DNA of 64,000 nt, taken from sequence record OR699282.2; one strand, given 5' to 3'. The notes beneath the pieces are model-generated. The model was given only the letters and a program-made list of their open reading frames with translations, made no database searches and was not told where the DNA came from. Below, one piece after another: positions 9,200 to 53,755 of the stretch; position 1 is the stretch's first letter; every line of letters begins with the position of its first letter. This DNA comes from Escherichia phage BAU.Micro_ELP-22. The translations under genes were made by a program, and so were the position numbers.

Positions 9200-9211
9200 A
9201 ACTTTTAAATT

Positions 9212-9238
9212 GGGGTTTGATTCAAACCCCTTTTGTTG
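9212..9238 (+). terminator. Rho-independent terminator
   Basis: ggggtttga/tcaaacccc hairpin followed by TTTT. Confidence 0.7.
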
Positions 9239-9295
9239 TATTTTAAAAGTAGTAAATAGTATTATATGTGCTAGTTTTTAAGGATAATATAAAAT

Positions 9296-9859
9296 ATGGA
9301 CGATTTAGATTATACAGATAATGCTATTCAGCAGTTGTATGATAACAGTGGTATGTTAGATATACTTCTTGCTGTAGAGAAATATTTCGATGATAATGAT
9401 TTATATGCGTATAAAGGAATTATTGAGGGTGAGTTGGTAGAGGGGCCAATTGTAAGTAAGTATTGGTGTACTGTTACATTTAAATACTATCGTGAAAATT
9501 TTCCCGATCCTACCGCATTCTCTATTTTAGAGAAACATGGAACTAAAGTATATGTTAAAGCTGATTATGAAATAACTCCTATTAAAGAACCAAATCGTCA
9601 AGCTGACATGAAAAGTGTAGCGACACAATCTGGCTCTGTACGTATACCAAAAAATGAAAGAATCCCAGTACTATTGGTTAGAGTGCAGATTCCACGAAAC
9701 TTGATTAATCCAGAAAGTTTTGATGAATATAAACTAATGGCAGCAGAATTCAATAGTAATCCAATGAATTCTCCTGAGAATATTGAAGAACCTGTAACTG
9801 GTGATGATGTGGATTTAGATGTAGAAGTAACGGATGAGACACAAGAAGGTGGAATGTAA
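9296..9859 (+). CDS. Hypothetical protein
   Basis: 187 aa ORF. Confidence 0.5.
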   Translation: MDDLDYTDNAIQQLYDNSGMLDILLAVEKYFDDNDLYAYKGIIEGELVEGPIVSKYWCTVTFKYYRENFPDPTAFSILEKHGTKVYVKADYEITPIKEPNRQADMKSVATQSGSVRIPKNERIPVLLVRVQIPRNLINPESFDEYKLMAAEFNSNPMNSPENIEEPVTGDDVDLDVEVTDETQEGGM

Positions 9860-10539
9860 TGAAAAAGAAATTAAATGAACAAGGCTTACGTCCGCAAGTT
9901 CTCAAAGATTTGATTCATCCTATCATTAGTGTTGATGAATATACTCCTAAAATTGAAGATAGTAATATTGTTATTATGTTTCAGGTACTTAACAATTTTG
10001 ATGCAGCATATGATTTATCTTCTTTTATTGAAAAATCACCTATTGATGTAGCTGATACAGAAGCAGCAGAAACACCAAATTTAGATGGTCGATATCAAGT
10101 TTATGTTGAAATGGAACGAAATGCTGAATTCCCTGAAAAACTTTTACGTTTAATTAAAACTATTGAAAATATTTGTCCAGACCCAGGTTGGAAAATACAA
10201 CTATATGGTGTTAATGACCCAATCGATGTTGATTTTGAAGAAATACAGCAGAGAATTGATTTGGGTATTCCTAGTTCAATTAGTGAGTTCCTTGATTATG
10301 CTGGTGTTTCAGTAATCAAAGAAGGAAACATGTTGACATTAAAAACAGCATATGGTAAATTACATTACAGTACTGGAAGCGGTTTTGTTTCAGAAACATA
10401 TGTGAAAAAGTTATTAAAGAATGATACACAATTAGACACTTCTCGTCTTAGTTCCATACTAGGGGAAAGCTATACAGTACTACGAAGTGGTGATCAATAT
10501 GTAATTGGAAGAAACGGGAAATATTTGGTGTTGCGATGA
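9859..10539 (+). CDS. Hypothetical protein
   Basis: 226 aa; TAATG start overlap. Confidence 0.55.
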   Translation: MKKKLNEQGLRPQVLKDLIHPIISVDEYTPKIEDSNIVIMFQVLNNFDAAYDLSSFIEKSPIDVADTEAAETPNLDGRYQVYVEMERNAEFPEKLLRLIKTIENICPDPGWKIQLYGVNDPIDVDFEEIQQRIDLGIPSSISEFLDYAGVSVIKEGNMLTLKTAYGKLHYSTGSGFVSETYVKKLLKNDTQLDTSRLSSILGESYTVLRSGDQYVIGRNGKYLVLR

Positions 10540-11354
10540 GAATTTTAAATATGCTTAAATCTCTTCACGAAACAACCAAATTACATCAGGATGAAAAGTA
10601 TCGTCGCAGCCTTACTAAAGATTTAGCATGTCGTATGTATATGCGTAGATTTGAAATTTCAAGAATTGGTAAAGGCTGGGATGATGTAAATCGTGAAGAC
10701 ATTGATCCAGATGCAATTTTTAAAGCATACATGGCTAGAAAAGTTTTCATAAATGAAAAAACTTTTTATATTGATAGTGATAGAGAATTAGAAAATAAAT
10801 TTACAAAAGGTTTATGGAAGATATGGTGTGTTGAAGTATTCGGTGAAGTATTACCTGAGCCACCTGTTCCAGAAACTTATAAAGATTTAAAAAGTATTTT
10901 TGATAATGAACATATACATTCAAATTTCTCATTATATGATACTGTGTCAGAAGCTGTATTTTATGGTGAGTTACATGGTCATAACAAATACTTTGATAGT
11001 ATGGTTAGTTTTGATTTGTTTTGTCACTTGCCTGGTGTATCAAGTTGGACATGTGATCAACACAGAGCAAGTAAGATTGATAAGCGAAAATTCTCGGCCC
11101 AAAGATTTATGCAAGTTGCTATGAGTATGTATAAACTTGATTATCTTGGTTGTCCAGAACCATATAAACATTTTTGGAAAGAAAGAGCACAAAAATGTTT
11201 AAACTATTGTATAATCCGTTTAATGGACACATACATTCTTAAGTTTAGAAATGCAACTGTATACGACATGCCTGAACCACCAAAGAATGAAAAATATCCA
11301 CCTGTCAAGACATTTGTATGGTACAAGGATAAAAGTAACAAAAGGATGCACTAA
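10536..11354 (+). CDS. Hypothetical protein
   Basis: 272 aa; ATGA overlap with upstream gene. Confidence 0.55.
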   Translation: MRILNMLKSLHETTKLHQDEKYRRSLTKDLACRMYMRRFEISRIGKGWDDVNREDIDPDAIFKAYMARKVFINEKTFYIDSDRELENKFTKGLWKIWCVEVFGEVLPEPPVPETYKDLKSIFDNEHIHSNFSLYDTVSEAVFYGELHGHNKYFDSMVSFDLFCHLPGVSSWTCDQHRASKIDKRKFSAQRFMQVAMSMYKLDYLGCPEPYKHFWKERAQKCLNYCIIRLMDTYILKFRNATVYDMPEPPKNEKYPPVKTFVWYKDKSNKRMH

Positions 11355-11370
11355 GGTGCGTCCTTTTTTC
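11343..11370 (+). terminator. Rho-independent terminator
   Basis: ggatgcac/gtgcgtcc hairpin plus TTTTTT, overlaps stop codon. Confidence 0.6.
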
Positions 11371-11379
11371 TTTTCAGGT

Positions 11380-11408
11380 GTTGACATGTGCAGTCGAAGT
11401 ATGTACAA
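11380..11408 (+). promoter_or_regulatory. Sigma70-type promoter
   Basis: TTGACA, 17 nt spacer, TACAAT. Confidence 0.55.
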
Positions 11409-11450
11409 TATCACCATCGCGTAAATTTTAATTGATTATGAGGTTTTATA

Positions 11451-12578
11451 ATGAAAGGTAAATATTTTTTCATTGAAAATGGCAAAGAAGTTGAGATTCA
11501 AGAATTTAACTATAATTATGTACTGAACTCTTTATTGAAACAATATGACCGTTCATCAAACAAAAAATACATTTATAATGTAATTGTTCGCCGCACCTAT
11601 GACTCATTGGGTAATCCGTTATTTGATGTAAAAACTCTGTCATTAGATGAAATCTATTTTGATAATAAACGTCTGAAAGTTCTTGATTTAATGAAGGATA
11701 AAATTCATTTTAGTAATATTAGAATTGATCCTAACATGCCAGTACCGCCATTAGAGTGTGAATATCGTGAATGGAAAGAAGGTCGTGCCAAACCACGTTT
11801 AGACTTGGTACAAACATCACCAGATGTACCTGCACCTATTGTTCTTAAGAAAAAACCTATCAACCCAGACGATAGCAGAATTGATGACATTGAAAGATGG
11901 GTTGAATTCCCTAGTACTATTGAAAAGAATTCAGTAAAAGTACTAGACTGGTTTGTAAACTTACCAGTTTGTGCACAAGAAATTGGAACTAAGATTCAAC
12001 AAATTTCAGAACGTCAATTGGATCTTAACTCAGCATTACAACAGCATAGTGATTATATTAGAATGCTTATGAATAACCTTACTGTTGCGTTGGAAACGTT
12101 GTTCCCATTGAAGCCGACCTTTACACAGAAATTGTTTGGTAAAACTGATATCAAAGTGCAACCATCAGATTTGCCAAAAGTGATGAAAGCACTAAATGAA
12201 GCAGTTAAGTATGACACTAATAAGTTTAGTGGTCTTAGTACGATGTTTTCAGAACTTAGAAACGAAGTTAATGAAATCAAAAATGAACTTGAATATGGTA
12301 AGTTGGGTTGTGAATACGCACTACGTTGTGTGGATGATGCGTTTGAATATGAATTAACATTAGAACGTATTATGAAAATGGGAATCACCACCTCCATGAC
12401 TGAAACGAGCATTATTGCAACAAGTAAGCAATATCAAGTTGATATGAATCGTATGGTAGATATTCAAACTATTACTATTCCTTTGATTATCAATCGTTTA
12501 CAATCACAGACAGGTAAAGCTGTGGATGAGAGTACTGTAGAAATTATTCGTAATCTGGCATATGGTAACAAAGAGTAA
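11451..12578 (+). CDS. Hypothetical protein
   Basis: 375 aa ORF. Confidence 0.55.
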   Translation: MKGKYFFIENGKEVEIQEFNYNYVLNSLLKQYDRSSNKKYIYNVIVRRTYDSLGNPLFDVKTLSLDEIYFDNKRLKVLDLMKDKIHFSNIRIDPNMPVPPLECEYREWKEGRAKPRLDLVQTSPDVPAPIVLKKKPINPDDSRIDDIERWVEFPSTIEKNSVKVLDWFVNLPVCAQEIGTKIQQISERQLDLNSALQQHSDYIRMLMNNLTVALETLFPLKPTFTQKLFGKTDIKVQPSDLPKVMKALNEAVKYDTNKFSGLSTMFSELRNEVNEIKNELEYGKLGCEYALRCVDDAFEYELTLERIMKMGITTSMTETSIIATSKQYQVDMNRMVDIQTITIPLIINRLQSQTGKAVDESTVEIIRNLAYGNKE

Positions 12579-12588
12579 AAAAAAATAC

Positions 12589-12617
12589 TTGACTATCATA
12601 CGTGCTGCCCGTATAAT
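12589..12617 (+). promoter_or_regulatory. Sigma70-type early promoter
   Basis: TTGACT, 17 nt spacer, TATAAT; inverted repeat gtgctgc/gcagcac flanks the -10. Confidence 0.65.
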
Positions 12618-12665
12618 GTTTATCACAGAGCAGCACATCATATTAAATTAAACGAGGAATACTAA

Positions 12666-13802
12666 ATGTCCGAGAAAGAAATCAATCCTAAAAAAGCATC
12701 CACCGCAGCTAAATCAGCAAAACGCACTACTAAAACTGCGTCTAAAGGTCATACAATTGATGCAAGTGATATTTTTAACCAAACTACAAAATCACTACCA
12801 GTACTGAAAGATGTTAAGGGAAATACTATGTCTCTAACAGTTCAAAACATCAATACTGTTGGTACAACTGCTGGTGCTGCTGTTGGGCGTTTGGCTGATG
12901 AAATTATGTCTAAAGTTAATGTAACGGATGACAATACCGAGTTTGGTAAATCAATCACCACAATTCTTACGTTGACTCGTGCAGTTGATATTGACAGTCT
13001 TCAAGAAGATAAATCAATTGTTGGTCGTATTAAGAAATTCTTTGTTAATGCTCAACAGAAAGTAGGTGATCAGTACAAAAACAGTAAAGAGCAAATTGAC
13101 GAAATTATGAAAACTCTTCAAACTGGTATTAATCGCCAGCACGGAGAATGTGAATGGCTTGATAAAGCATATAATGAAAACAAAGAATATTTGTTTGAAT
13201 TACGTGATACATTAGTTGGTTTAGAAGAAGTAACTAAAACACAAGATGCATTATTATTAGAAATGCAAGCAGACAAAAATGTAGACTCTTTTGCTATTCA
13301 AGAGCAAAAGATGATTTGTGAAGCACTTTCTAAACAAGAAGATAAGATTCGTCGTCTTATCATGATGTGCGAGCTAAGTGGTCCACGTTTGATGAGTATG
13401 AAAAAAGTAAACTTGAACACTGTTTCTAAGTTTGAAGATTTAAAATCTGTTGTTATTCCAGCATGGAAGTCTCAATTGGCTGAACAGTTAATTTCCGAGC
13501 GTCAACGTAAGGATAATGAACTAGGCAATCTAATTGATAATGAGACAAACCGTCTTTTGGAAACTAACTCTAAAATGGTTGCAGCAAATATGTTGGACGC
13601 AGCAAAGGCAAACAACCGTGGTATTGTGGATATTAAAACCTTGCGTAATGTACATAAAACGATGATTGACAGTATTGAAGCAGTTATTGAAGAAGAGAAA
13701 AAAGGTAAATTGGAACGTGAACGTGCTAAACAGGAAATTGCACAACTTTCCTATGAACTGGAAGACACTCTTCGTGAAATTGCCGAAAAAGCTAACAAGT
13801 AA
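12666..13802 (+). CDS. Hypothetical coiled-coil-rich protein (possibly TelA-like, unverified)
   Basis: 378 aa; lysine-rich N-terminus; family assignment is weak recall only. Confidence 0.55.
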   Translation: MSEKEINPKKASTAAKSAKRTTKTASKGHTIDASDIFNQTTKSLPVLKDVKGNTMSLTVQNINTVGTTAGAAVGRLADEIMSKVNVTDDNTEFGKSITTILTLTRAVDIDSLQEDKSIVGRIKKFFVNAQQKVGDQYKNSKEQIDEIMKTLQTGINRQHGECEWLDKAYNENKEYLFELRDTLVGLEEVTKTQDALLLEMQADKNVDSFAIQEQKMICEALSKQEDKIRRLIMMCELSGPRLMSMKKVNLNTVSKFEDLKSVVIPAWKSQLAEQLISERQRKDNELGNLIDNETNRLLETNSKMVAANMLDAAKANNRGIVDIKTLRNVHKTMIDSIEAVIEEEKKGKLERERAKQEIAQLSYELEDTLREIAEKANK

Positions 13803-13805
13803 TAG

Positions 13806-13834
13806 TTGACATATGAGTGCGTTTTTAATATAAT
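13806..13834 (+). promoter_or_regulatory. Sigma70-type early promoter
   Basis: TTGACA, 17 nt spacer, TATAAT. Confidence 0.6.
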
Positions 13835-13858
13835 CTTATTGAAAACGCACTCTTTTTA
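13815..13858 (+). terminator. Terminator hairpin whose loop contains the -10 of the next promoter
   Basis: gagtgcgtttt / aaaacgcactc 11-bp stem followed by TTTTT. Confidence 0.55.
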
Positions 13859-13881
13859 ATGTACAGATAAGGAACTAACTT

Positions 13882-14571
13882 ATGAAACGTCGTCATATTA
13901 GTGTTGATATTGAAGCTCTTGGAACACCTGAACTTTCCGGTTATGATATTATTATCCCAAATTACGCAGCAGTAGTAGTTCCAAGTAAACCTGAAAATGA
14001 CATTCGTCAGTTCTTATATATTAAATTACCATACCAGGATCAAGTTGCAACTGGTTTAAAATCAGACGCAGGTGCAATGGATTTTTGGATGAATACATGT
14101 CAGAAAGAATACCCTAATGCATATGCTGAAGTTGCCAGTACTATGAAACTCAAAGCACCTGAACTGTATGGACCTAATGGTCAATCACGACGTTTTTTTG
14201 CATACAGTAGTATTGTTGATTTCTGGAAAGAATTACGTTACAATGATTATGGTGAAGAAGTTCCTCATTCAGTCTGGGGCAACGGATGTAACTTCGATTG
14301 TAGTATTTTACAAGCAAACCATTTAAAACTAATGAACGCTGGTGAGTTGTGGAAGTATGATGCACCTGAAAATGCACGCACATTGAAACGTTTATTGAAT
14401 GAAGAAGCTCGTATTGAAATGGATGAAATCGTTTCGGTACAGTTGGATAAATTTATCAGATATGCAAATACGTGTGGGATTAATGGGTTGGAGTTACATC
14501 ACCCACTGTTTGATGCAGCACGTGAAGCAATCCAGATTTCATTCTGTCTAAACAAGCTTAAAATGGATTAA
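13882..14571 (+). CDS. dexA: DexA-like 3'-5' exonuclease (DEDDh family)
   Basis: 229 aa; Exo I motif SVDIEALG, Exo III-like HHPLFDAAREA; size and layout like T4 DexA. Confidence 0.65.
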   Translation: MKRRHISVDIEALGTPELSGYDIIIPNYAAVVVPSKPENDIRQFLYIKLPYQDQVATGLKSDAGAMDFWMNTCQKEYPNAYAEVASTMKLKAPELYGPNGQSRRFFAYSSIVDFWKELRYNDYGEEVPHSVWGNGCNFDCSILQANHLKLMNAGELWKYDAPENARTLKRLLNEEARIEMDEIVSVQLDKFIRYANTCGINGLELHHPLFDAAREAIQISFCLNKLKMD

Positions 14572-14574
14572 TAC

Positions 14575-15669
14575 ATGAATTTCATTATTCTGTTAATACC
14601 TGCTCTTATCGTTGTATTCGTTATGAAATACATGTACGATAAGCATATCAGTACTAAAGAACTATTGATTCATATTGGTTGTTGTCTGGTTGGTGCGGCT
14701 CTTGTTCTTGGTATTTCATACGCAATCAACTATAGCCAGCTTTATGATGTTGAGATTCTGAATGGTCAAGTAACTTCAAAATACAGCCACAAAGAATATT
14801 GCACACAATCTAGTTCATGTAAGCACTATACATGGCATGAGAAGTGCCATACGCGATATGATAGTAAAGGTAAATCACATCGTGAGTGTGAATCATATAA
14901 GGTTTTTGATTACTCATATGAAGTTGATTGGTATGTGAAAAGTACAGTAGGTGAGTTTGAGATTGAACGTGTGAACCGTCAAGGTACAATGACACCACCA
15001 CGTTGGCAGCAAGTTATGATTGGTGACTATGCCGCCGCAGAGAGTTCATATATCAACTATCTATTTGCTGATAAGAACTCATTGTTTAGTCCTGAAGAAC
15101 TACACAACATGTATGATGAAAAGTATCTTAGTACTATTCCAGAATACCCAAGTGTAGTTGATTATTACAAAATACATCACGTAATTAACACTACAAATTA
15201 CAACGTTGATGGTTACGATGAATACCTTCGTAATGAGCTAAAAACGATGGGTGCAAGAAAGCAGGTAAACATCCAAGTACTAGTTTATGATTACAAAGAT
15301 GTGGATTTTGTTGATGCTACCCTTGCATCGTGGCGTGGTGGTAAGAAGAATGATGTTATTATGTTCTTTGGTATTGACAATGATGGTAACGTTGTCAAAT
15401 TTTACAGTACATCATTTGCACAAGGAATGAAGAATGAAGAGTTACATGCAAAGATGCGTATTGATGCATTAAATGAAAAATTAACTCTTGACTTACTAGT
15501 TAAAGAAGTACATAATATTGACAAACATTTTGAGAGACTCTCTAATAAAGAGTTTGAGTACTTGTCAGTAAAAATGGAACCTAGAAAAGATGTTCTTATC
15601 GGTGCTTCCATTGTGTTGTTGATTCTGTCTATTTTCATTGGCCTTTATATGAGGGATAACGATTTATGA
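14575..15669 (+). CDS. Membrane protein, Cys/His-rich central region
   Basis: 364 aa; hydrophobic segments at both termini. Confidence 0.55.
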   Translation: MNFIILLIPALIVVFVMKYMYDKHISTKELLIHIGCCLVGAALVLGISYAINYSQLYDVEILNGQVTSKYSHKEYCTQSSSCKHYTWHEKCHTRYDSKGKSHRECESYKVFDYSYEVDWYVKSTVGEFEIERVNRQGTMTPPRWQQVMIGDYAAAESSYINYLFADKNSLFSPEELHNMYDEKYLSTIPEYPSVVDYYKIHHVINTTNYNVDGYDEYLRNELKTMGARKQVNIQVLVYDYKDVDFVDATLASWRGGKKNDVIMFFGIDNDGNVVKFYSTSFAQGMKNEELHAKMRIDALNEKLTLDLLVKEVHNIDKHFERLSNKEFEYLSVKMEPRKDVLIGASIVLLILSIFIGLYMRDNDL

Positions 15670-16220
15670 ATGGTAAACTCCTTGCGTTAATTGGTATTTT
15701 GGTAGTTATCGTACTAATGGTGTTTGGTTCTATTAGTATGTATGTTGGTGCACATGATCGTGCAGTTGAGTTTGAAGGAAACATTAAAAAGTACTATGAT
15801 GCATCAGAAAGTCAACTTAGCAATTATACTCTTACTATTCAAGATAAGGTTCAAGTAGCCGATAAGTATAAAGATGCGTTGAAAGAAACGATTGAATCAT
15901 ACTTTAAAGGGCGTGAAGGTGTTGACCAGAAGTTTGTAATGTCACAGATTCAACAACAGGTTCCAAATCTTGATCCTAAAATTTATCAGGAATTGATGGT
16001 GACAATTGAAACAGGACGTACAAAGTTCAACAATCTTCAGAAAATGAAAATTGACCAGTGTACTGATTATGCTAAGTTCCGCAAAGGCTTCTGGAATTCC
16101 AAAATTCTTGATTCGAATACGTTTCCAAGTGAAAATATTGAACACCTTTGTACAGTAGTATCTGATACGCGTACCAAGAAAGCAATGGATACTGGTATTC
16201 AAGAATCAATTAAACTATAA
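15666..16220 (+). CDS. Membrane-anchored hypothetical protein
   Basis: 184 aa; N-terminal TM helix; ATGA overlap. Confidence 0.55.
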   Translation: MNGKLLALIGILVVIVLMVFGSISMYVGAHDRAVEFEGNIKKYYDASESQLSNYTLTIQDKVQVADKYKDALKETIESYFKGREGVDQKFVMSQIQQQVPNLDPKIYQELMVTIETGRTKFNNLQKMKIDQCTDYAKFRKGFWNSKILDSNTFPSENIEHLCTVVSDTRTKKAMDTGIQESIKL

Positions 16221-16229
16221 TTAAATGTT

Positions 16230-16255
16230 GGGAGTACTTTGTACTCCCCTTTTCT
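16230..16255 (+). terminator. Rho-independent terminator
   Basis: gggagtac-ttt-gtactccc hairpin followed by CTTTTCT. Confidence 0.7.
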
Positions 16256-16267
16256 ATGGGGTGTACT

Positions 16268-16855
16268 ATGTTTTTAAAAAATACTTATGAATTAATTAAA
16301 ATGCTTCAAAATATGAATTCCGGTGGCTTGTTTCCCTATTACTCTGAGGATGAAACTCATCGTTTAGTCCTTAAATTGGATGAAACTGGACGTATTATAT
16401 CACTAAGAACAACAGTCCCCAGTGTAGAACCAGTAATTACCAAATCAACTCAAAATTCAGGAACTGCTGTTAAAACACCACAAACATACAACTCTAATTA
16501 CCAACAACCACAAATGTACACGATTAGCACTCCACCTATTAAACGAGTTGCTTGTATTGTGAATATAAAAGTATCTAAGGACTATCGCGACTTAATATCA
16601 GTTGAATGGTCAGAACTAACATCATCATTAGCAACAAATGGATTTGTAGTAACAAATACAGGTCTAGCACAAAATGTGAAAGAAGGACAACAGATCATGA
16701 GTGCATTGTATCTTAGTAATGGTTGTGTTATCATCAATGGTAAGTTGTATAGCGATGCCGACCCCACTGCATTCACTGAAGATTTGATTGGTGATAAAGA
16801 ATACAGCATTCTTGAAATTATGAATTTGAAAAAGGTATATGAAAACCATGACTAG
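16268..16855 (+). CDS. Hypothetical protein
   Basis: 195 aa from ATG 16268 with GGGGTG RBS. Confidence 0.5.
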   Translation: MFLKNTYELIKMLQNMNSGGLFPYYSEDETHRLVLKLDETGRIISLRTTVPSVEPVITKSTQNSGTAVKTPQTYNSNYQQPQMYTISTPPIKRVACIVNIKVSKDYRDLISVEWSELTSSLATNGFVVTNTGLAQNVKEGQQIMSALYLSNGCVIINGKLYSDADPTAFTEDLIGDKEYSILEIMNLKKVYENHD

Positions 16856-17420
16856 ATTTCATCAAGATGATTTGCCATTTATCCAAGAACTAGAAGAACT
16901 GGTGATAAGTATTATGGATGAAATTAGTACTTGGGATATAACAGTTTTTCGAAATGTATATGATAAAGTGGTGAATTTTAAAAATGTTAATATTGAAGTA
17001 AAACATAATAATTTTTACTTAACAAAACAATTCATTCTAACTCGACCAGGATCAAAGCCAGTTAAACGTAATTTATCATTCGGACACCTGATTGGTGCAG
17101 AAAATGTACATGATGAATGGGTTGATTCAATCTATTCGTATACAAAAGAACTTATTCCTGATATTGAGAAAAAATATTATCTTAGTATCACATTAGATGA
17201 AAACGGTAATCTTAATGCATATTCAATAAATTCTTCTTCAAATGTTCCATTACATTCACTGACGATTGGTGATAAAAAAATGCTAATAAATTCTGAAACA
17301 TGGTATAATAGAGAAAATTTCGCAGCAGAATCATTTCAGTACTCAGTATCTGAACCAAAGTCACCTTTTGATTTAGTGTTTGTTAATAATATTATTTTAC
17401 GTTTTGGTGTAGGAGTGTAA
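16839..17420 (+). CDS. Hypothetical protein
   Basis: 193 aa ORF. Confidence 0.5.
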   Translation: MKTMTRFHQDDLPFIQELEELVISIMDEISTWDITVFRNVYDKVVNFKNVNIEVKHNNFYLTKQFILTRPGSKPVKRNLSFGHLIGAENVHDEWVDSIYSYTKELIPDIEKKYYLSITLDENGNLNAYSINSSSNVPLHSLTIGDKKMLINSETWYNRENFAAESFQYSVSEPKSPFDLVFVNNIILRFGVGV

Positions 17421-17423
17421 TTT

Positions 17424-17777
17424 ATGCTAATTTATTTAAGTGTTATTGTAATTTCATTACTGGTATCATTCGCTGTTCTTAAAATTGTTGCTATTTGTAG
17501 AAGTAAGATTGATAGTTCTGAAACTAGTTCAGTACTTGACTTGATTATGGACCATCCTAAAATCTGTGGTATTATTGTATTATTCGTTGTACTGATTAAT
17601 ACATATATTGTCAGGGAACATTTATATAATATGTATGATTGTAGTGTTAGATCTATATCACAAGGTGTTGAAACAGACTATAGTTGGTACTATGAGAAAT
17701 GTCGATTTAAAAACCAGCATGGTATTTGGGTTGATTTTGATAAACTACGTGGAACACCTTCAGGAGAAGAAGAATAA
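17424..17777 (+). CDS. Small membrane protein
   Basis: 117 aa; two hydrophobic helices. Confidence 0.5.
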   Translation: MLIYLSVIVISLLVSFAVLKIVAICRSKIDSSETSSVLDLIMDHPKICGIIVLFVVLINTYIVREHLYNMYDCSVRSISQGVETDYSWYYEKCRFKNQHGIWVDFDKLRGTPSGEEE

Positions 17778-17779
17778 TT

Positions 17780-18271
17780 ATGTTTGAATTCCCAGAAGAG
17801 TCATTTAACTTCATTGACCCTACTGATGATGGATACCGACATATTAACATTTATAGTAAAGCCAGAACGAAGTTAGGTAGAGATCTATCTAACTTTTCTT
17901 CGCATAGCTTCACACTTGAACCATATGGTTGGTTCCCTTCAGTTGAAACATTTTACTTTTGGTTTTTAACTGGGCAAAAACATGATGACCTTAGAAAAGT
18001 ATCTGGTGCAGCAGCAAAAGCAGCCGCTAACAAATATATGCATGATCGAATTGAAATGACGGATGATTGTATTTCTATTATTCAAGATGCTATTTGTGCT
18101 AAGATAATTCAAAATCCAGAGTTAGCCGAAAGATTAAGAAAAAGCAAGTTGCCTTTTTACCATTACTATGTATATGGTGGTAAAGTTGTAGATGTATCCG
18201 ACGAACATGATTGGTTTGTTAAAACATTCGAATATATAAGAACGGTGTTAAAGGAAAACTATAATGGGTAA
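17780..18271 (+). CDS. YbiA/NADAR-like protein
   Basis: 163 aa; INIYS, LSNFS, FPSVETFYF and AKIIQNPELAERL segments parallel E. coli YbiA blocks as recalled. Confidence 0.5.
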   Translation: MFEFPEESFNFIDPTDDGYRHINIYSKARTKLGRDLSNFSSHSFTLEPYGWFPSVETFYFWFLTGQKHDDLRKVSGAAAKAAANKYMHDRIEMTDDCISIIQDAICAKIIQNPELAERLRKSKLPFYHYYVYGGKVVDVSDEHDWFVKTFEYIRTVLKENYNG

Positions 18272-18542
18272 ATGTTGGGTATGCTTCAAGGTGTTTGATG
18301 AAGAATATGAAATAATATTAGATGTATTGCCACAGCAGTACATGGTGTGTAATGAAAAATACAAATTGGACACCTACCCGACCCCCAAGTACATGGGAAT
18401 ATGTCCTTTGTGTGATGCAAATGGCGTGTCCAATAGTGAGATTTCATTCACTAACCAAGCCACAACTAACTGTGTATCTGGGTATATAAGAGAGAATCGA
18501 GAATATTTTATTAGGAGATTATATGAACGACAAAATCTTTGA
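18264..18542 (+). CDS. Zinc-ribbon protein
   Basis: 92 aa; CWVC and CPLC pairs. Confidence 0.45.
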   Translation: MGKCWVCFKVFDEEYEIILDVLPQQYMVCNEKYKLDTYPTPKYMGICPLCDANGVSNSEISFTNQATTNCVSGYIRENREYFIRRLYERQNL

Positions 18543-18753
18543 TACATATGACATCGATACTTTACTAACACCATCTGATAACAGTACTGTTAAAATGGAC
18601 ATGTACTGGATTGTCGTTGATAAAAAAGTATTTAGACATAAAATTACTAAAGTTTGGCAATGTAATAAAAACAAATCTATTGTTGAAGGATTGGCACAAT
18701 GCATTCCTAATGCAGAGGTTTTATTTTTACCATATGCATATACAAAGGAATAA
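18523..18753 (+). CDS. Hypothetical protein
   Basis: 76 aa ORF. Confidence 0.4.
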   Translation: MNDKIFDTYDIDTLLTPSDNSTVKMDMYWIVVDKKVFRHKITKVWQCNKNKSIVEGLAQCIPNAEVLFLPYAYTKE

Positions 18754-33962: not shown

Positions 33963-34298
<336 letters not shown>

Positions 34299-34299
34299 A

Positions 34300-34482
34300 A
34301 TGACACACGAAGAATGGATGTCCAAACAGCATAAAGAACATGACTGCTTTGGGAATGGCATTCGTCAGGTACATTATGATATATTAAGAGATGAAAATCT
34401 TTTCAGGTCATATGTTTTGGATACCAGAAAACCCTGGTTTATATGCGAACTGGCATTTAGAAAGTCAAATAATCAAAACTAA
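34300..34482 (+). CDS. MTHEEW mini-protein family member 3
   Basis: 60 aa; MTHEEWM...WFICELAFRK. Confidence 0.5.
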   Translation: MTHEEWMSKQHKEHDCFGNGIRQVHYDILRDENLFRSYVLDTRKPWFICELAFRKSNNQN

Positions 34483-34498
34483 ACAAGGAATACAAAAA

Positions 34499-34717
34499 AT
34501 GGAAACAACTTTATTAGAAGTTATTCAATCATTAAAACCTGAAGATGAGGTTCAAGTACTACTACATGGTTATCGTGTAAAAGGTACTGTGGTTTTAGTC
34601 AATGATACAACATTGGTTATTACAGAAACAAACCCATATGATAGTAATCAACTTGCCAATATCCATATCGATATCACTGGAATTATTGGTGTCGGTGTAT
34701 CTAAAACACTTGCATAA
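34499..34717 (+). CDS. Hypothetical protein
   Basis: 72 aa from ATG with AGGAA RBS. Confidence 0.45.
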   Translation: METTLLEVIQSLKPEDEVQVLLHGYRVKGTVVLVNDTTLVITETNPYDSNQLANIHIDITGIIGVGVSKTLA

Positions 34718-34770
34718 ATCATTAATTCATTATATAATGATTATCACTGGTTCTAGATGAGGATAATATT

Positions 34771-35043
34771 ATGCATTTTGAAAAATTCAACGTAAATCGT
34801 AACACACGCATTGAAGTTCTTTATGAAACTCAAGACACCATTAGTATTCGTACAAGTAGTGGGGATGTATATCATGACTGTACGATTGGCTGGGAACAGG
34901 GAAGAACGCGTAGTGCAGTATTTGATAATTATCGCTTTTATCAAGGAGACACTACGATTTGGCCTGAATACGTAGAAGATATTGCGTTTGAAGATGAACA
35001 TAAAGATGAATTTATCAAATTTAATCCTCAAACTGAATCATAA
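34771..35043 (+). CDS. Hypothetical protein
   Basis: 90 aa; GAGGA RBS. Confidence 0.5.
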   Translation: MHFEKFNVNRNTRIEVLYETQDTISIRTSSGDVYHDCTIGWEQGRTRSAVFDNYRFYQGDTTIWPEYVEDIAFEDEHKDEFIKFNPQTES

Positions 35044-35048
35044 ATAAT

Positions 35049-35176
<128 letters not shown>

Positions 35177-35180
35177 AAAT

Positions 35181-35282
<102 letters not shown>

Positions 35283-35287
35283 AAACC

Positions 35288-35448
35288 ATGACGCATGAAG
35301 AATGGATGAATGACATTAATTTTAGATATTCGGGTATCGGTAAATGGCTAAAGTATCATTGGGAATTCATTTCAGAGCCACATATGTATGATAAACTTAT
35401 CAACGATCCAGCATATGAAATGTACTTAATTGAACTACTGGTACGAAT

Positions 35449-35452
<4 letters not shown>
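35288..35452 (+). CDS. MTHEEW mini-protein family member 4
   Basis: 54 aa; MTHEEWMNDINF...; below ORF-track threshold. Confidence 0.4.
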
Positions 35453-35614
<162 letters not shown>

Positions 35615-35624
35615 AAAAAAAAGA

Positions 35625-36033
<409 letters not shown>

Positions 36034-36037
<4 letters not shown>

Positions 36038-36061
36038 CTAAATAATTCAGTACTGTATAAT
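36034..36061 (+). promoter_or_regulatory. Early promoter, conserved-spacer family
   Basis: TTGACT-aaataattcagtactg-TATAAT; drives tRNA-Gly. Confidence 0.7.
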
Positions 36062-36063
36062 GC

Positions 36064-36147
<84 letters not shown>

Positions 36148-36167
36148 TTAATAATTCAAAGGTGAAT

Positions 36168-36344
36168 ATGATGCTATCACACAAAACAGCAACTGTTGAA
36201 AATATTGAATCATTATCTGCACAAGAATTGGTTGACAAAATTAAAGAAGTATGTGATAATAATGGCATTGATATGAATGATACATTTATTAGTGTAGGTT
36301 ATGGTGATTTAGAAATTCAATCTAAAACACTATATTATACTTGA
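36168..36344 (+). CDS. Small hypothetical protein
   Basis: 58 aa from ATG with AAGGTGA RBS. Confidence 0.45.
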   Translation: MMLSHKTATVENIESLSAQELVDKIKEVCDNNGIDMNDTFISVGYGDLEIQSKTLYYT

Positions 36345-36362
36345 CTAAATAGTTCAGTACCG
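36341..36362 (+). repeat. Degenerate copy of conserved-spacer promoter (has -35 and spacer, lacks -10)
   Basis: TTGACTaaatagttcagtacc followed by GAAGGAG rather than TATAAT. Confidence 0.5.
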
Positions 36363-36400
36363 AAGGAGATTAATATGTTTAAAGATGAACGTCCAGATTT

Positions 36401-36441
<41 letters not shown>

Positions 36442-36448
36442 GAATTCC

Positions 36449-36788
36449 ACAATCAGACGTATATGGTGTAAGTTACGTCGATGCAATCCAGAACAAGATC
36501 TCTGGTACTCTAGGAAGTGGTGAATGTTAACCTAGACGGGTTTGATAATTGGACGATAGGCAATTATTACTTGACTAGCAGGTTGAAACTAGAGGTGACA
36601 GTCCTTCACCAAACTGGAAAACCGGATGGACTTTTATTTAAAAGGGTAAGGCGTGGAAATATGTTTACAGAAGTTGCTTTTAGTAGCCTGTACGCCCCAC
36701 GTCAAGGTAGCCGAAAGGCAAGTTAAAACGGATGGTTATAAAGCTGAATTAACAGCGGCGTTTAAAAGCGTCACCATCCATTTTTTTT
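36449..36788 (+). ncRNA. Candidate structured non-coding RNA (about 340 nt) within the tRNA island
   Basis: Starts at predicted TSS of promoter 36413; GC-enriched versus flanks; ends in ggatggt...caccatcc stem plus T8; only internal ORF has GTG start. Confidence 0.35.
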
Positions 36789-36804
36789 AATTAAAGTTGG
36801 TGAT

Positions 36805-37194
<390 letters not shown>

Positions 37195-37210
37195 TATTAA
37201 GTATTGATAT

Positions 37211-37456
<246 letters not shown>

Positions 37457-37461
37457 CTAAA

Positions 37462-37626
<165 letters not shown>

Positions 37627-37650
37627 ACGAAATTACAATAGGAAATTAAA

Positions 37651-37836
37651 ATGCAACTTTTAATTCTTTCAATATTGTATATTATTATAATGGTTCCGAT
37701 ATCAATACGTTTAATTACAGTTGAACGATTTTTATCGAAACATGGAAATAGATCTATGATCTTTGTACCAATCGGGTTGATATTGTTTGGTATATTTTCA
37801 TTTATAATGGGAATTAACGCTACATTCATTTCATAG
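37651..37836 (+). CDS. Small membrane protein
   Basis: 61 aa; two hydrophobic helices; AGGAAA RBS. Confidence 0.45.
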   Translation: MQLLILSILYIIIMVPISIRLITVERFLSKHGNRSMIFVPIGLILFGIFSFIMGINATFIS

Positions 37837-37845
37837 GAAACAAAT

Positions 37846-38103
<258 letters not shown>

Positions 38104-38111
38104 GAATTTAA

Positions 38112-38513
38112 ATGAAAAAGAATGACTTGATCAAAATGCTTCAAGAGATTGACGGCAATCCAGAGATTGTTATTTGGAATGGATATGTCGATGATTATAT
38201 GAACATCGAAAAAGGCTTGACTAAAATCACTCTAGTCAAAGAAACTGAACAGTTCCTTCTGGAAGCATTAGTGCACGAATGGTGCAAACGTAACAATACA
38301 TTCGACATTCCAGAAGATCAACGAACTAAGATTGCAGAACGTGCTAAAGAACTGCATAAGAAACGCGAATACGATTTCCAGAACCCACATGTTACTGAAG
38401 ACGAATTCAATCACTGGTACGGTAAAAAGAAATTGACAAAGTATGTCCTTTCACCTAAACTACGTGGTAAGACTTCACTTGGTGTATTCAACGCCGCAGA
38501 CTTAAACTACTAG
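38112..38513 (+). CDS. Hypothetical protein (paralogue of next gene)
   Basis: 133 aa; N-terminus MKKNDLIKMLQEIDGNPEIV parallels next ORF. Confidence 0.55.
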   Translation: MKKNDLIKMLQEIDGNPEIVIWNGYVDDYMNIEKGLTKITLVKETEQFLLEALVHEWCKRNNTFDIPEDQRTKIAERAKELHKKREYDFQNPHVTEDEFNHWYGKKKLTKYVLSPKLRGKTSLGVFNAADLNY

Positions 38514-38522
38514 CGGGTATTA

Positions 38523-39071
<549 letters not shown>

Positions 39072-39073
39072 TA

Positions 39074-39130
<57 letters not shown>

Positions 39131-39143
39131 AGTAAGAGTAAAA

Positions 39144-39316
<173 letters not shown>

Positions 39317-39328
39317 TATCTTACTTCT

Positions 39329-39407
<79 letters not shown>

Positions 39408-39424
39408 CAAAATAAAGGTACACT

Positions 39425-50912: not shown

Positions 50913-51878
50913 GTGAAAAAGCTTGATTTAAATACAATTGCCGAAGAAGTTCTGGATGAATGTTTTGCTAATGAAGAAGTCAACACACTAGAAGCCTTAG
51001 ATTTCGTTGAAGATAAAGATGAAAATGAAGGTAAAGTACAAAGCAGTTTCAAATATAATATTACACTTAAGCGACCACCAAATGTTTCCAATGAAGATCT
51101 AATTCGTGATATTCAAGCTGGTATCAATGTAAAGAAAAACACTGAACTGTTAGTTCGTTACAATTATGGACTGATTATTGATGTAGCAAGTAAATGTACT
51201 TGTTATATCCCATTTGAAGATAAGATTTCATATGGTGTTGAGGGGTTCATGAGAGCACTAAAAACCTTTGATCTTAATAAGAATGTTAAGTTCATTACCT
51301 ATGCTTCTTCTAGTATTTACATGACAGTCTATAACGAAAGTTCTGACGCTAACTATATGGTACACTTCCCACGTTATATGAGTGTTCATAAGATCAAAGT
51401 AAAAAGATTCTGTCAGGAATATATGCGTAAACATGGTGTTCGCCCAACTCCTGAAATAATCTCAGAGGGTACTGGGATTGAGATTCAGCATGTTAATAAT
51501 TGTTTGTTATTTCAAAGCGAATACACTTCGCTGGATGCACCATTAGACGGTGTTACAGATGGTACATTAGGTGACATTATTCATTCACCTGCTTCTGATT
51601 TTAACCTCAATGTTGATAGTATCCGTGCACCTTTACGTTATGCTATCAATGAACTGACTAACGAATTGAGTACTAAAGAACGTGAGATTATCCAGCGTGT
51701 TCATGGTCTAGGTGAATATGAACCTGAAACGCTTCGTGAGATTGCTGATAATGGTTTTGTTGATGATAATGGAAAATATGTTAAATCCCGTTCATCAATA
51801 CACCGAAAGTACAGTGAAGCTATGCAAAAGCTTAAGAAGTTAGTACTTGCAAAAGGGTACGAATACGAAGATTTCTAA
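50913..51878 (+). CDS. Sigma-70 family RNA polymerase sigma factor
   Basis: 321 aa, GTG start after AGGAG; region 2-like GVEGFMRALKTFDLNKNVKFITYASSSI and HFPRYM; region 4-like TLREIAD... Confidence 0.65.
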   Translation: MKKLDLNTIAEEVLDECFANEEVNTLEALDFVEDKDENEGKVQSSFKYNITLKRPPNVSNEDLIRDIQAGINVKKNTELLVRYNYGLIIDVASKCTCYIPFEDKISYGVEGFMRALKTFDLNKNVKFITYASSSIYMTVYNESSDANYMVHFPRYMSVHKIKVKRFCQEYMRKHGVRPTPEIISEGTGIEIQHVNNCLLFQSEYTSLDAPLDGVTDGTLGDIIHSPASDFNLNVDSIRAPLRYAINELTNELSTKEREIIQRVHGLGEYEPETLREIADNGFVDDNGKYVKSRSSIHRKYSEAMQKLKKLVLAKGYEYEDF

Positions 51879-51885
51879 AGAACAA

Positions 51886-51911
51886 GGGTTGGCTTATGCC
51901 AACCTTTTTTT
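51886..51911 (+). terminator. Rho-independent terminator
   Basis: ggttggc-ttat-gccaacc hairpin followed by T7. Confidence 0.75.
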
Positions 51912-51914
51912 ATG

Positions 51915-51941
51915 GGATGAAGTAAAAGTTTGTGATATAAT
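51915..51941 (+). promoter_or_regulatory. Probable early promoter (strong extended -10, weak -35)
   Basis: TGTGATATAAT. Confidence 0.4.
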
Positions 51942-51944
51942 TAT

Positions 51945-52430
51945 CTTGTACAATTCTGTTGGCATGATATTCATGTACCTGATCCACTCGAAAACGTAGA
52001 GGGCAGTTGAGCAGTCCGACAGTGCGAACAGCAAAAGAAACCCGTTAGATGTGGGCATAGTTTGAACCCCTCACGGCAATGCGGCTGTATAAAGAACCAC
52101 GTTAGGATAGCTGGTGGTTCCTTGATAGACATATAAGGATAACACCTTACGAATTATCTAAGGGAGAGTTATCGAATTTTGTACAGGAAAGTTGCGTCCA
52201 AAATTTGAGTACTCACATTAAGTATTTGATTGCATAGATACTTAATGAAGATACACTATGTTTAAAAGTGTAGACCGTCATATGAAACTGAAGTAGAGAG
52301 AAACAGGATGACCCGCTTTCGCACTCGTTATGAGTAATCTTCAATGCAATAGCTCTGATACCATCAGCGTCAAATTTCCCTCCTTGTGGGGGGAAGAAAA
52401 ATCCCTTCCTCAAATCCCGTCAATATTAAA
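51945..52430 (+). ncRNA. ORF-free, partly GC-enriched block; candidate structured RNA
   Basis: No + strand ORF of 60 aa or more; first ~150 nt markedly more GC-rich than genome; ends with 8-bp hairpin ttccctcc/ggggggaa. Confidence 0.3.
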
Positions 52431-52435
52431 AGTCC

Positions 52436-52464
52436 TTGACAGTTATTAATCATTCGCGTAGAAT
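52436..52464 (+). promoter_or_regulatory. Sigma70-type promoter
   Basis: TTGACA, 17 nt spacer, TAGAAT. Confidence 0.55.
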
Positions 52465-52528
52465 ACGTAGTATTAGAAGCGAACAGACATCTCGAAGAGA
52501 TGGATGATTAACCATTAAGGAATATCCA

Positions 52529-52738
52529 ATGAATTCAGTAATCTTTTTAGTAGTCGCTTTTTCTGTTAATTCCGGTGTACAAATAACCCCAATGAATTCC
52601 ATGAATCAATGTATAGCAGTACGTGATAGTACATACGAACAAGTAAACAAAGATATTTGGATTACAGTTAATAAAGAACAAATGTGGTGTTACAATAGTA
52701 ATACTAACACAAAGCTTATTGTAGGACAAACTCAATGA
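52529..52738 (+). CDS. Small secreted protein
   Basis: 69 aa; hydrophobic N-terminus; AAGGAA RBS. Confidence 0.5.
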   Translation: MNSVIFLVVAFSVNSGVQITPMNSMNQCIAVRDSTYEQVNKDIWITVNKEQMWCYNSNTNTKLIVGQTQ

Positions 52739-52965
52739 GTTATGGTGTTCGTTTTGAGATTCGTTCTATTGTCATCGATGCAGAGAAACAAGTATCGTTA
52801 GATGGTGATATACGTGAAATTTATCTATCATGTATACGTGCGAAATCTGAAGCAGATGCCTTAGTACAAATGTATAGTTTTAACTTTTCAAATGGATTCT
52901 ATTTGGTACGAGTTATTGAAGTGAAAAAAGTACTTATTGGTTGTAGCATAGAAGGATTAATGTAA
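52735..52965 (+). CDS. Hypothetical protein
   Basis: 76 aa; ATGA overlap. Confidence 0.45.
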   Translation: MSYGVRFEIRSIVIDAEKQVSLDGDIREIYLSCIRAKSEADALVQMYSFNFSNGFYLVRVIEVKKVLIGCSIEGLM

Positions 52966-52966
52966 A

Positions 52967-53755
52967 ATGAGCACTATAGATGAACTGATTCGACGGAATT
53001 CAAAATATTACCAACCATCAGAAATTGTAGGTAACATTACCAAATCAGAGTTTGGTCCAAATACTCGAAAACTCATTCATGTAATGTCACGTGATGGCTT
53101 TAAATGTGATTGTTGTGGTGAATCAAATGTAGTATTCACTTTACACAAGCACAGTACTAAAGAACGTTATAAATTCAGACCTTATGTACTTAAAGGGAAA
53201 CGCCTTGTACGCATGACGTTAGACCATAATGTACTGGACTGTCTTCAGGGCGGTAATGATAAAGAGAACATGACTGCACTGTGTGAAGATTGTAACGCAT
53301 TACGCCAGCATAAGTTTGCTGAATACAGTGAGTTTAAACACTGGTATCATAACGCGGATCGTTCAATCGAGCCTGACGTTAACTACTGCTTCATTGAGTA
53401 CATTAAGAATGCCAAAGATACATACATTCTTAAATCAATGTCACCTATTACCGTGTTTCCTGAGAACCTATTCACTACATTAAAGAATAGTTTTATTGTA
53501 GGTGATATTGATGCATTCAAGTATTTTGACAAAGGTGCAAAACATTTTGAAATTCAATGTCTTAGTACTGCACTATGTGAACTCATTAAAATTTACATAA
53601 AAGAGTATTTGGGTATTGACAATGTACGTGTACCAGAGTATACTTTTTCTATTGAATTCGATTGTGAATCAATCAAAGAGTTTGGAATTCTTTTCAATAA
53701 ACAAATAGAACTTGCAATTCAAAACGAAATCAAGTACTATACTACTAACATTTAA
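52967..53755 (+). CDS. HNH endonuclease (probable free-standing homing endonuclease)
   Basis: 262 aa; Cys cluster FKCDCCGE; HNH core TLDHNVLDCLQGGNDKENMTALCEDCNALRQH. Confidence 0.7.
   Translation: MSTIDELIRRNSKYYQPSEIVGNITKSEFGPNTRKLIHVMSRDGFKCDCCGESNVVFTLHKHSTKERYKFRPYVLKGKRLVRMTLDHNVLDCLQGGNDKENMTALCEDCNALRQHKFAEYSEFKHWYHNADRSIEPDVNYCFIEYIKNAKDTYILKSMSPITVFPENLFTTLKNSFIVGDIDAFKYFDKGAKHFEIQCLSTALCELIKIYIKEYLGIDNVRVPEYTFSIEFDCESIKEFGILFNKQIELAIQNEIKYYTTNI

Follow-up and report, generated by a model that had tools for sequence, protein, structure and literature searches.

Non-coding RNAs of 400–600 nucleotides (nt) endowed with several covarying pseudoknots are rare and, to our knowledge, almost every characterised class of them is a ribozyme, the core of a ribonucleoprotein (RNP) or an RNA-only assembly. 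Some large RNAs described so far are borne by phages. GOLLD and ROOL have been presented as RNAs that form RNA-only homo-oligomers (PMC12286853). Phage PA5oct, described as related to the 121Q/PBECO4/RaK2 group, encodes the 451-nt ncRNA002 (PMC7318152), and phage ICP1 an orphan transcript of ~800 nt (PMC7567579), both ranking among the most abundant phage transcripts. Here we describe an element located at positions 51945–52430 of a 64,000-nt stretch of DNA (hereafter, the window) from Escherichia phage BAU.Micro_ELP-22 (sequence record OR699282.2). An initial annotation, made from the letters of the window, had pointed out there a block without open reading frames (ORFs) that could be a structured RNA, the remnant of a horizontally acquired gene or the homing site of a nearby HNH endonuclease. 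Our analyses show that the block belongs to a family selected for a specific fold, which is read from the plus strand. It is highly probable that positions 51948–52423 of this strand encode a stand-alone non-coding RNA of ~475 nt whose family matches no model in Rfam 15.

A specific fold selected on the plus strand

Members of the family were gathered with conserved DNA patterns (in IMG/VR, metagenomes and GTDB genomes) and with an nhmmer profile. A strict 23-base pattern was used on IMG/VR; two looser ones gave mostly chance matches among the matches listed. The family is large and well defined, with ~80 distinct sequences: we retrieved 96 full-length matches, 79 of them unique, from IMG/VR, metagenomes and bacterial genomes, which were de-replicated to 55 sequences less than 96% identical and aligned with a MAFFT-based procedure (alignment A1). 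A covariation scan yielded a model of 15 helices and 78 pairs, counted on A1, and the fold so modelled comprises at least 15 helices (P0–P12, P14, plus the pseudoknots PK1, PK2 and PK3). In this model 95.6% of the cells are paired, as compared with 76.1% in column shuffles (none of 500 reached the model) and 38–43% when partners were slid by 1–3 columns. Cells with compensatory changes number 815, versus 221 and 89–126 in the same two controls, and the covariation score is 0.558, versus 0.188 and 0.073–0.103. Changes on both sides affect 57 of the 78 pairs across the 55 sequences. RNAalifold, applied to an earlier set of 18 sequences, independently predicted P1, P3–P6, P8–P11 and P14, and the earliest alignment, made of four paralogues, was already compensatory (GAACCAC/GUGGUUC versus GAACUC/GAGUUC).

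Because G-U and U-G appositions exceed A-C and C-A ones in the model pairs (316 to 57), the plus strand is the one that is selected and folded. The window copy is itself under structural selection, since compensatory changes in P1, P3 and P5 separate it from its 92%-identical orthologue in UE-S1. In A1, ~85 columns show no variation among the 55 sequences, and many of these are unpaired. Such a fold, with long single-stranded joiners that do not vary and with peripheral hairpins capped by GNRA tetraloops or by a recurrent module, bears the signature of a compact tertiary structure, as known from large ribozymes or RNP scaffolds. The covariation, which extends over 15 helices including three pseudoknots, thus strongly supports the first of the three options initially considered, that of a structured RNA.

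This RNA corresponds to no known family. A scan of the whole window at gathering thresholds with the 4227 models of Rfam 15, which include RNase P, group I and II introns, tmRNA, 6S, GOLLD, ROOL, HEARO, OLE, raiA, hammerhead and T-box, returned only seven tRNAs, and neither RNase P, nor an intron, nor any other family matched the block. Scans at E ≤ 10 of the window copy, of a typical phage copy (L029) and of a bacterial copy (L283) retrieved sub-threshold chance matches only, corresponding to snoRNAs, terminator-containing small RNAs, a microRNA, a CRISPR-repeat model and a thermometer model. Searches of the full-text literature found no description of the element; a survey of 10,006 candidate viral RNAs may include an unnamed candidate that overlaps it.

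Copies in jumbo phages and bacterial islands

A blastn search of the block against 50,697 phage records, in addition to the nhmmer profile, revealed it as a conserved element. Its core (~51978–52429) was matched by blastn in 61 records, all of Rak2-like jumbo phages, at 254 places in total, with 3–5 copies per genome. The hosts of these phages belong to Escherichia, Salmonella, Erwinia, Serratia, Yersinia, Pectobacterium, Cronobacter, Klebsiella and Xanthomonas, and the nucleotide identity of the core between phage genera is ~70%. The family profile matches the window at 51978–52423, and the window (64 kb) carries a single copy. We assembled the genome of EC22.5-2 (OR845138.1), an unannotated close relative that is 99.4% identical over the RNA core. 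It contains four copies on one strand, at ~90.0, 143.4, 223.2 and 333.3 kb, the last one being the window's copy. These paralogues share just 60–72% identity, and the genes adjoining them are unrelated to one another. Beside the copy at 223.2 kb (c223) lie ORFs of 163 and 323 amino acids (aa; EC22.5-2 221524–223032) that have, by eye only, a homing or endonuclease VII-type look; counting these neighbours with that same reservation, nuclease genes occur near two of the four copies.

The full-length RNA is also present in bacteria, namely in the complete chromosome of Serratia fonticola and in contigs of Enterobacter chinensis, Silvania, Serratia sp., an Enterobacteriaceae isolate and metagenome-assembled genomes, with integrative-island copies in Buttiauxella as well. 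It occurs in two of 5426 complete E. coli genomes, and a search of plasmids gave no match to the RNA. The bacterial copies are located in AT-rich islands, adjoining a tyrosine integrase or a large serine recombinase gene. In four of eight bacterial loci the RNA faces a cI-like S24 repressor gene, and two of these four also carry an HTH_35 gene. The island of E. coli LR-29-1 (NZ_AP027515.1), of ~10.8 kb (7750–18644 of the extracted locus), sits between ffs and ybaA. It contains a tyrosine integrase gene disrupted by IS3 and the candidate defence system PDC-M45 (DuOB, DUF488, mSLOG-DUF4326), and the RNA occupies a 1.4-kb gap without annotated feature. This E. coli copy shares 83% identity with some phage paralogues, whereas those of a single phage share 60–70% with one another; this closer relationship implies that the cassette has passed between phages and islands. 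A protein common to the islands and the phage, as a possible partner of the RNA, was sought among their genes, and only DUF4326 in one island was found, along with spurious ORFs inside the RNA, so that the two have no candidate for a dedicated partner in common.

In S. fonticola (NZ_CP183218.1, 61–5490 of the extracted locus), the RNA lies between two tandem, near-identical 87-aa ORFs and two ParB/RepB-like genes accompanied by a large serine recombinase. The 87-aa ORF is presumably rof and the adjoining 442-aa ORF, tilS; the arrangement suggests an integration junction. A divergent subfamily was detected in metagenome contigs (L350, L330, L304, L339, L332 and L310); its 3′ domain, the sole part to score with the profile, is clearly homologous, and its 5′ domain only loosely so. 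In L350, a sigma-like gene is found directly upstream of the RNA, echoing the sigma-RNA adjacency of the window, and in L310 the RNA lies between a truncated-transporter-like gene, recognised by eye, and large tail-fibre-like genes.

Anatomy, transcription and competing explanations

The predicted RNA gene of the window extends over 51948–52423 (~476 nt; plus strand, as all features that follow), from a putative start ~7 nt past the −10 element to the end of the conserved tail. PK1 and P0 sit upstream of the match to the nhmmer profile. PK1 joins CUGUUGG (51956-62) to the loop of P2, CCGACAG (52016-22); seven of its eight aligned pairs changed on both sides. The P0 hairpin (CAUGA-UAU-UCAUG, 51963–51975; A1 columns 86–125) is variable and often GNRA-capped in other members. 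P1 (CUC/GAG, 51987-89 / 51999-52001), a hairpin with the conserved loop GAAAAYGUA, has three of three pairs covarying and is 96% paired. P2 (GCA/UGC, 52011-13 / 52023-25), closed by the 10-nt loop that forms PK1, is 100% paired, its middle pair being UA in 29 sequences, AU in 15 and CG in 11. P3 (ACAGC/GCUGU, 52028-32 / 52084-88), also 100% paired and with compensatory changes in three of five pairs, encloses P4 (CCGU/ACGG, 52042-45 / 52073-76; 99.5% paired), whose variable apical extension gives way in some members to a UUCG tetraloop. It is followed by the P5 hairpin (GAACCAC/GUGGUUC, 52094-100 / 52114-20), in which all five aligned pairs are compensatory. The joiner GAUAGACAUAUAAGG and P6 (UAAGG 52134-38 / CCUUA 52145-49) together span 52124-49, and a second joiner, CUAAGGGAG (52158-66), lies on the other side of P6; the columns of both joiners are nearly invariant in A1. 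Of all the helices P6 is the weakest, with 76% pairing in the alignment.

P7 (52166-214) is a long variable hairpin that carries here a truncated 'UACA..AGUUGCGUC' module and, elsewhere, the full module or a GNRA tetraloop. This recurrent 'UACAAUAUAGAUCCGUC' module, flanked by AAUUUU/AAAAUU (A1 columns ~480–520 and ~665–695; truncated version at 52180–52199 of the window), is found at the tip of P7 or P11 depending on the member and alternates with GNRA tetraloops, a swapping of the kind seen at the periphery of RNAs with tertiary contacts. P8 is a 12-bp hairpin (52216-27 / 52236-47) with compensatory changes in all 12 pairs. Its loop AUUGCAU (52229-35) forms PK2 with AUGCAAU (52344-50), with seven of seven pairs compensatory and 99.5% paired; the PK2 sequence differs in each paralogue of one genome, always self-matched. 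The P9 hairpin (UACACU/AGUGUA, 52252-57 / 52267-72) shows compensatory changes in four of five aligned pairs. PK3, between GUCAU (52277-81) and AUGAC (52308-12) inside the loop of P11a, is 100% paired, with three of five pairs compensatory. P10 (UGAAG/CUUCA, 52289-93 / 52339-43; five of five pairs compensatory) encloses P11a (GAGAG/CUUUC, 52296-300 / 52316-20; 100% paired, with AU, GC, CG and UA at one pair) and P11 (ACUC/GAGU, 52323-26 / 52332-35; three of three pairs compensatory), and the region within it (52289–52343) contains the invariant AGAAAC...ACCCGCUU.

P12 takes the form CUGAU/AUCAG (52355-59 / 52363-67) in the window copy and covaries among subfamilies (GACGA/UCGUC, UUUCG/CGAAG, UCGAU/AUCGA); a single consensus register failed for it, the registers differing among subfamilies. 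P14 is a GC-rich hairpin (UUCCCUCC-UUGU-GGGGGGAA, 52376-83 / 52388-95), 98.9% paired, with one-sided C/U changes only. Its form CCCC-N3-4-GGGGGGA is found only in the other three copies of EC22.5-2, the window copy having CCUCC...GGGGGG. The 3′ tail AAAUCCCGUCAA (52412-23) has an invariant AAA.C.CG.CA and, in the EC22.5-2 genome, its motif occurs only at the four elements. As P14 and the tail are conserved 3′ of a terminator-like hairpin, and the tail is confined to the four elements, they belong to the element and are not a general promoter motif. A closing helix GAUGAG/CUCGUC, proposed by RNAalifold, was rejected: its A is invariant and the partner varies among U, C, A and G.

Two direct repeats stand out in the 3′ domain. 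R1 (AUCAGCGUCAA, 52363-73; A1 columns 731–741), at or after P12, has the consensus A-Y-C-A-N-CGUCA-R, and R2 (52414–52423; A1 columns 823–832), in the tail, A-Y-C-N-CGUCA-R. Their Y position is concordant in all 55 sequences, being the top mutual-information partner of that tail column across A1, and their R position in 51 of 55. Rare variants hit both repeats together, namely CGACA in a single copy from Serratia and CGAAG throughout both repeats of the divergent subfamily, and the strand pairing with R1 follows these changes. In many members the 5′ strand of P12 pairs with R1 or R2 at similar energy, ~−7 kcal/mol each. From these sequence patterns, the repeats could act as a conformational switch, allow strands to be exchanged between cis and trans, or form a pair of sites for one factor.

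The window matches the Asteriusvirus jumbo coliphages: phAPEC6 is 100% identical over 51880–52530, and G17, 121Q, PBECO4 and others 99–100%. The setting of the RNA gene was correctly described from the start. No ORF of at least 60 aa overlaps 51945–52430 on the plus strand (those present at the block have 50 aa, at 51847–51999, and 39 aa, at 52330–52449; minus strand ORFs have 54, 53 and 66 aa), and the beginning of the block is GC-rich, with 0.46–0.51 GC in 100-nt windows over 51950–52100 against ~0.29–0.39 in the flanks. The gene presented as a sigma factor (50913–51878) is annotated as RNA polymerase sigma factor in the G17 and phAPEC6 records and is followed, as claimed, by a terminator-like hairpin (51884–51907), and the nearby locus said to encode an HNH endonuclease contains a 262-aa ORF (52967–53755) annotated as similar to this enzyme. 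A second GC-rich patch (52300–52400, GC 0.46) stands out in a genome of ~33% GC. The HNH cassette, of ~1.04 kb (52708–53746), consists of a 76-aa ORF and the endonuclease ORF, and EC22.5-2 has ~86 bp instead; in this it resembles an inserted, free-standing homing endonuclease, and it is independent of the RNA gene. Immediately 3′ of the RNA, at 52436–52464, lies the near-consensus sigma-70 promoter TTGACA-17-TAGAAT (11 of 12 matches), which is predicted to drive small downstream ORFs. ARAGORN called no tRNA or tmRNA at 51945–52430 and seven tRNAs at 33985–39408, a cluster (Gly ×2, Ser ×2, Met, Asn, Thr) situated ~12 kb upstream of the RNA; an extra weak Rfam tRNA match (35181–35259) is not called by ARAGORN. 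In SHEFM2K, E9.1, JP4, SD-15_S21, WPEC3 and other GenBank records, 3–5 short 'hypothetical proteins' are annotated across the RNA gene at the orthologous locus, and in the UE-S1 record part of the gene is annotated as repeat_region. These are probably over-annotations, so that a practical consequence of recognising the RNA concerns the spurious proteins placed across its gene in several records.

Transcription would start from a dedicated promoter. The window has a −35-like hexamer, TGGGAT (51913–51918), located 17 nt 5′ of an apparent extended −10, TGaTATAAT (51933–51941); the former is conserved in position in A1, with TGGGACA/TGGAACG as family consensus. A −10-like hexamer is found upstream of 40 of the 55 members, with the TG extension in 34, and many have the TGGGACA/TGGAACG box 17 nt further upstream. 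In the related phage CBB, a 'divergent RpoD-like' promoter (−35 TGAAACG) has been reported to precede DNA-synthesis genes (PMC5259590). The putative sigma-70-like promoter of the RNA (TGGGAT-17-TGaTATAAT) resembles it and would be of a class linked in CBB to DNA-metabolism (middle) genes. At the other end, a terminator-like hairpin with a U-run (P13) is found between P12 and P14 in 23 of the 55 members and is missing from the window copy.

The position of P13 invites a reading of the element as a cis-acting leader, in which P1–P12 would be a sensor controlling read-through of the embedded terminator and the 5′ strand of P12 would switch between R1 and R2. The equivalent pairing of these identical-type repeats and the co-orientation of most phage copies with their downstream genes agree with it. 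However, about half of the family lacks the terminator, the repeats do not overlap its stem, the downstream genes are unrelated between copies and, in the window, they have their own near-consensus promoter. Furthermore, the gene that comes next runs on the opposite strand in c223 and in half of the eight bacterial island copies (L276, L277, L278 and L283). What we found is thus not the succession of sensor, terminator and same-strand gene of a riboswitch or attenuator, and we regard a leader as unlikely. Given that the neighbouring gene is convergent with c223 and with the island copies, and that a strong, independent promoter comes after the window copy, the RNA would act in trans, either by itself or together with host factors, rather than as the leader of the next gene.

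Structured or primer transcripts at replication origins, such as ColE1 RNA II and the R-loops of T4 oriF and oriG, offer another explanation, namely a structured primer RNA that would mark several origins in the 350-kb genome as well as an island origin. The 3–5 dispersed same-strand copies per genome fit such a function, as do the likeness of the promoter to the class preceding DNA-synthesis genes in CBB, the G-run/C-run hairpin at the 3′ end and the presence of the element in integrative elements that may need replication after excision. Nevertheless, known primer RNAs do not require as much as three covarying pseudoknots and dozens of unpaired bases that never vary, and the islands show no recognisable replication genes in the 8–24 kb visible, which makes an origin transcript quite improbable. 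Even less credit can be given to an element acting as DNA, whether a recombination or att site, an array of protein-binding sites or the homing target of the HNH endonuclease. Recombinase genes (tyrosine or large serine) or island/host junctions next to the bacterial copies, the co-varying direct repeats and the homing-endonuclease-like genes near two of the four phage copies (those of c223 by eye only) speak for it, but the excess of G-U over A-C together with long-range compensatory changes indicates selection on one transcribed strand, and virulent jumbo phages have no integration step. The initially suggested homing site, in particular, found no support: the HNH cassette is an indel absent from EC22.5-2, which retains the RNA (the flanks that still align near this indel being only 90–94% identical, a qualification to this argument), and the other three copies are in unrelated contexts. 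Finally, a decayed protein-coding gene or horizontally acquired remnant, the latter also suggested at first, is seemingly backed by a GC content higher than that of the surroundings and by the short proteins annotated across the block but has practically no likelihood, as no reading frame is conserved on either strand of the family alignment (longest ORFs with a median of 36 aa on the plus strand and of 50 aa, range 31–101, on the minus strand), core lengths (423–611 nt) spread evenly across the three residues modulo 3, indels do not come in threes, substitutions compensate each other in pairs, and ~70% identity is kept across genera where decay would be free.

A stand-alone RNA thus remains our preferred reading, against which several points must be weighed. 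Single-sequence folding z-scores are unremarkable (−1.75 for the plus and −1.41 for the minus strand), and the case for a structured RNA rests on covariation, not on thermodynamics. The percentage of paired cells is somewhat optimistic, given that the alignment rests on MAFFT and that the sequences on which the pairs were counted also served to derive the structure, and P6 and P12 are poorly resolved in the model. The window copy is, in addition, the most divergent paralogue, with the lowest profile score, no terminator-like hairpin and a truncated P7 module. The transcript, its ends and its abundance are what we infer from sequence signals, and no protein partner or target was identified.

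Each jumbo phage keeps 3–5 diverged paralogues of this RNA at dispersed sites, and, with its transfer between phages and small integrative islands, the cassette would be a self-contained module useful to different mobile elements. The ancient paralogues, the putative middle-class promoter and the exchange with islands, one of which has a candidate defence system, suggest a role in the biology of these elements. More speculatively, and with considerable doubt, we envisage a new large functional RNA class of Enterobacterales mobile elements, ribozyme or self-assembling, in which paralogues with distinct PK2 'addresses' would form separate or mixed oligomers, the P12 5′ strand, R1 and R2 would compose a strand-exchange switch (R1 in cis, R2 in trans or as the alternate), and the cassette would be exchanged through a role in phage-host or phage-island conflict. 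The RNA sits in cultured, tractable coliphages (phAPEC6, 121Q, PBECO4, G17) infecting E. coli K-12 (phage Sharanji), which makes its function directly testable.

Comparison with known RNA classes

In RNase P RNA, the P4 pseudoknot pairs the block CR-I (GAGGAAAGUCC) with CR-V, whose consensus is ACAGAACCCGGCUUA, and helices follow the order P1–P18. The RNA of the window has a comparable length and a long-range pseudoknotted core, and its segment ACAGAGCAACCCGCUUUCG locally resembles CR-V, a likeness that does not survive inspection of the alignment. In contrast with RNase P, it has no partner of the CR-I/P4 type, its helices come in another order and it exists in multiple divergent copies. RNase P RNA was rejected, as no covariance model matches and no CR-I-like block is found among the invariant columns of A1; the caution with which short resemblances to it had been left uncalled was well founded. 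Hammerhead ribozymes consist of three helices that meet at an invariant core, CUGANGA and GAAA, and are cleaved at an NUH site. A hammerhead-like string in our RNA (CA-GAUGAG-[P2]-CGAA-[P3]-UA) was discarded, as U4 is A, and A6 is U in the window and several members; besides, the 'GAA' varies (GAU, GCA, GUU), there is no stem I and no Rfam hammerhead model matches. Group I and II introns were also rejected, since all copies are intergenic with their own predicted promoter and no intron model matches.

The transcripts of ColE1 RNA II and of the T4 origins share with the RNA of the window a length of several hundred nt and a dedicated promoter, T4 origins being dispersed as well, but their structural conservation is far less elaborate. 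Nor did origin features show up with the RNA of the window, although no search was aimed at iterons, a DnaA box or an AT-rich unwinding element next to the copies. The pRNA of phi29 is likewise a phage structural RNA with covarying loop-loop pairs, in principle made in trans. It is, however, much shorter (~120–174 nt, versus ~475 nt), single-copy instead of multicopy and confined to phi29-like phages, and it serves packaging, whereas nothing ties our RNA to portal or terminase. Moreover, as modelled, PK2 would stack directly on P10 and be sterically plausible in cis.

Closer in size are PA5oct ncRNA002 and the ICP1 transcript, which are also phage-encoded, ORF-free and intergenic. These two are known from their expression in RNA-seq, and the RNA of the window from sequence and covariation. 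A homology with PA5oct ncRNA002 was rejected: nhmmer (--max, E ≤ 10) found no match at its locus, from which the conserved blocks are absent. The nearest kind is that of the large phage-borne 'ornate' RNAs, GOLLD and ROOL (Rfam RF01998 and RF03087), with which our RNA shares size, complexity and carriers, without homology. Like it, they are hundreds of nt long, with many covarying helices and pseudoknots, are carried by phages or prophages, possess transcription signals of their own and lack an assigned function. Unlike it, they are carried by Lactobacillales or rumen phages instead of Enterobacterales jumbo phages, and neither model matched the window, L029 or L283 copies at E ≤ 10. In turn, the RNA of the window differs from both in not lying beside a tRNA cluster, the one in the window being 12 kb away, and in having 3–5 diverged paralogues per genome.

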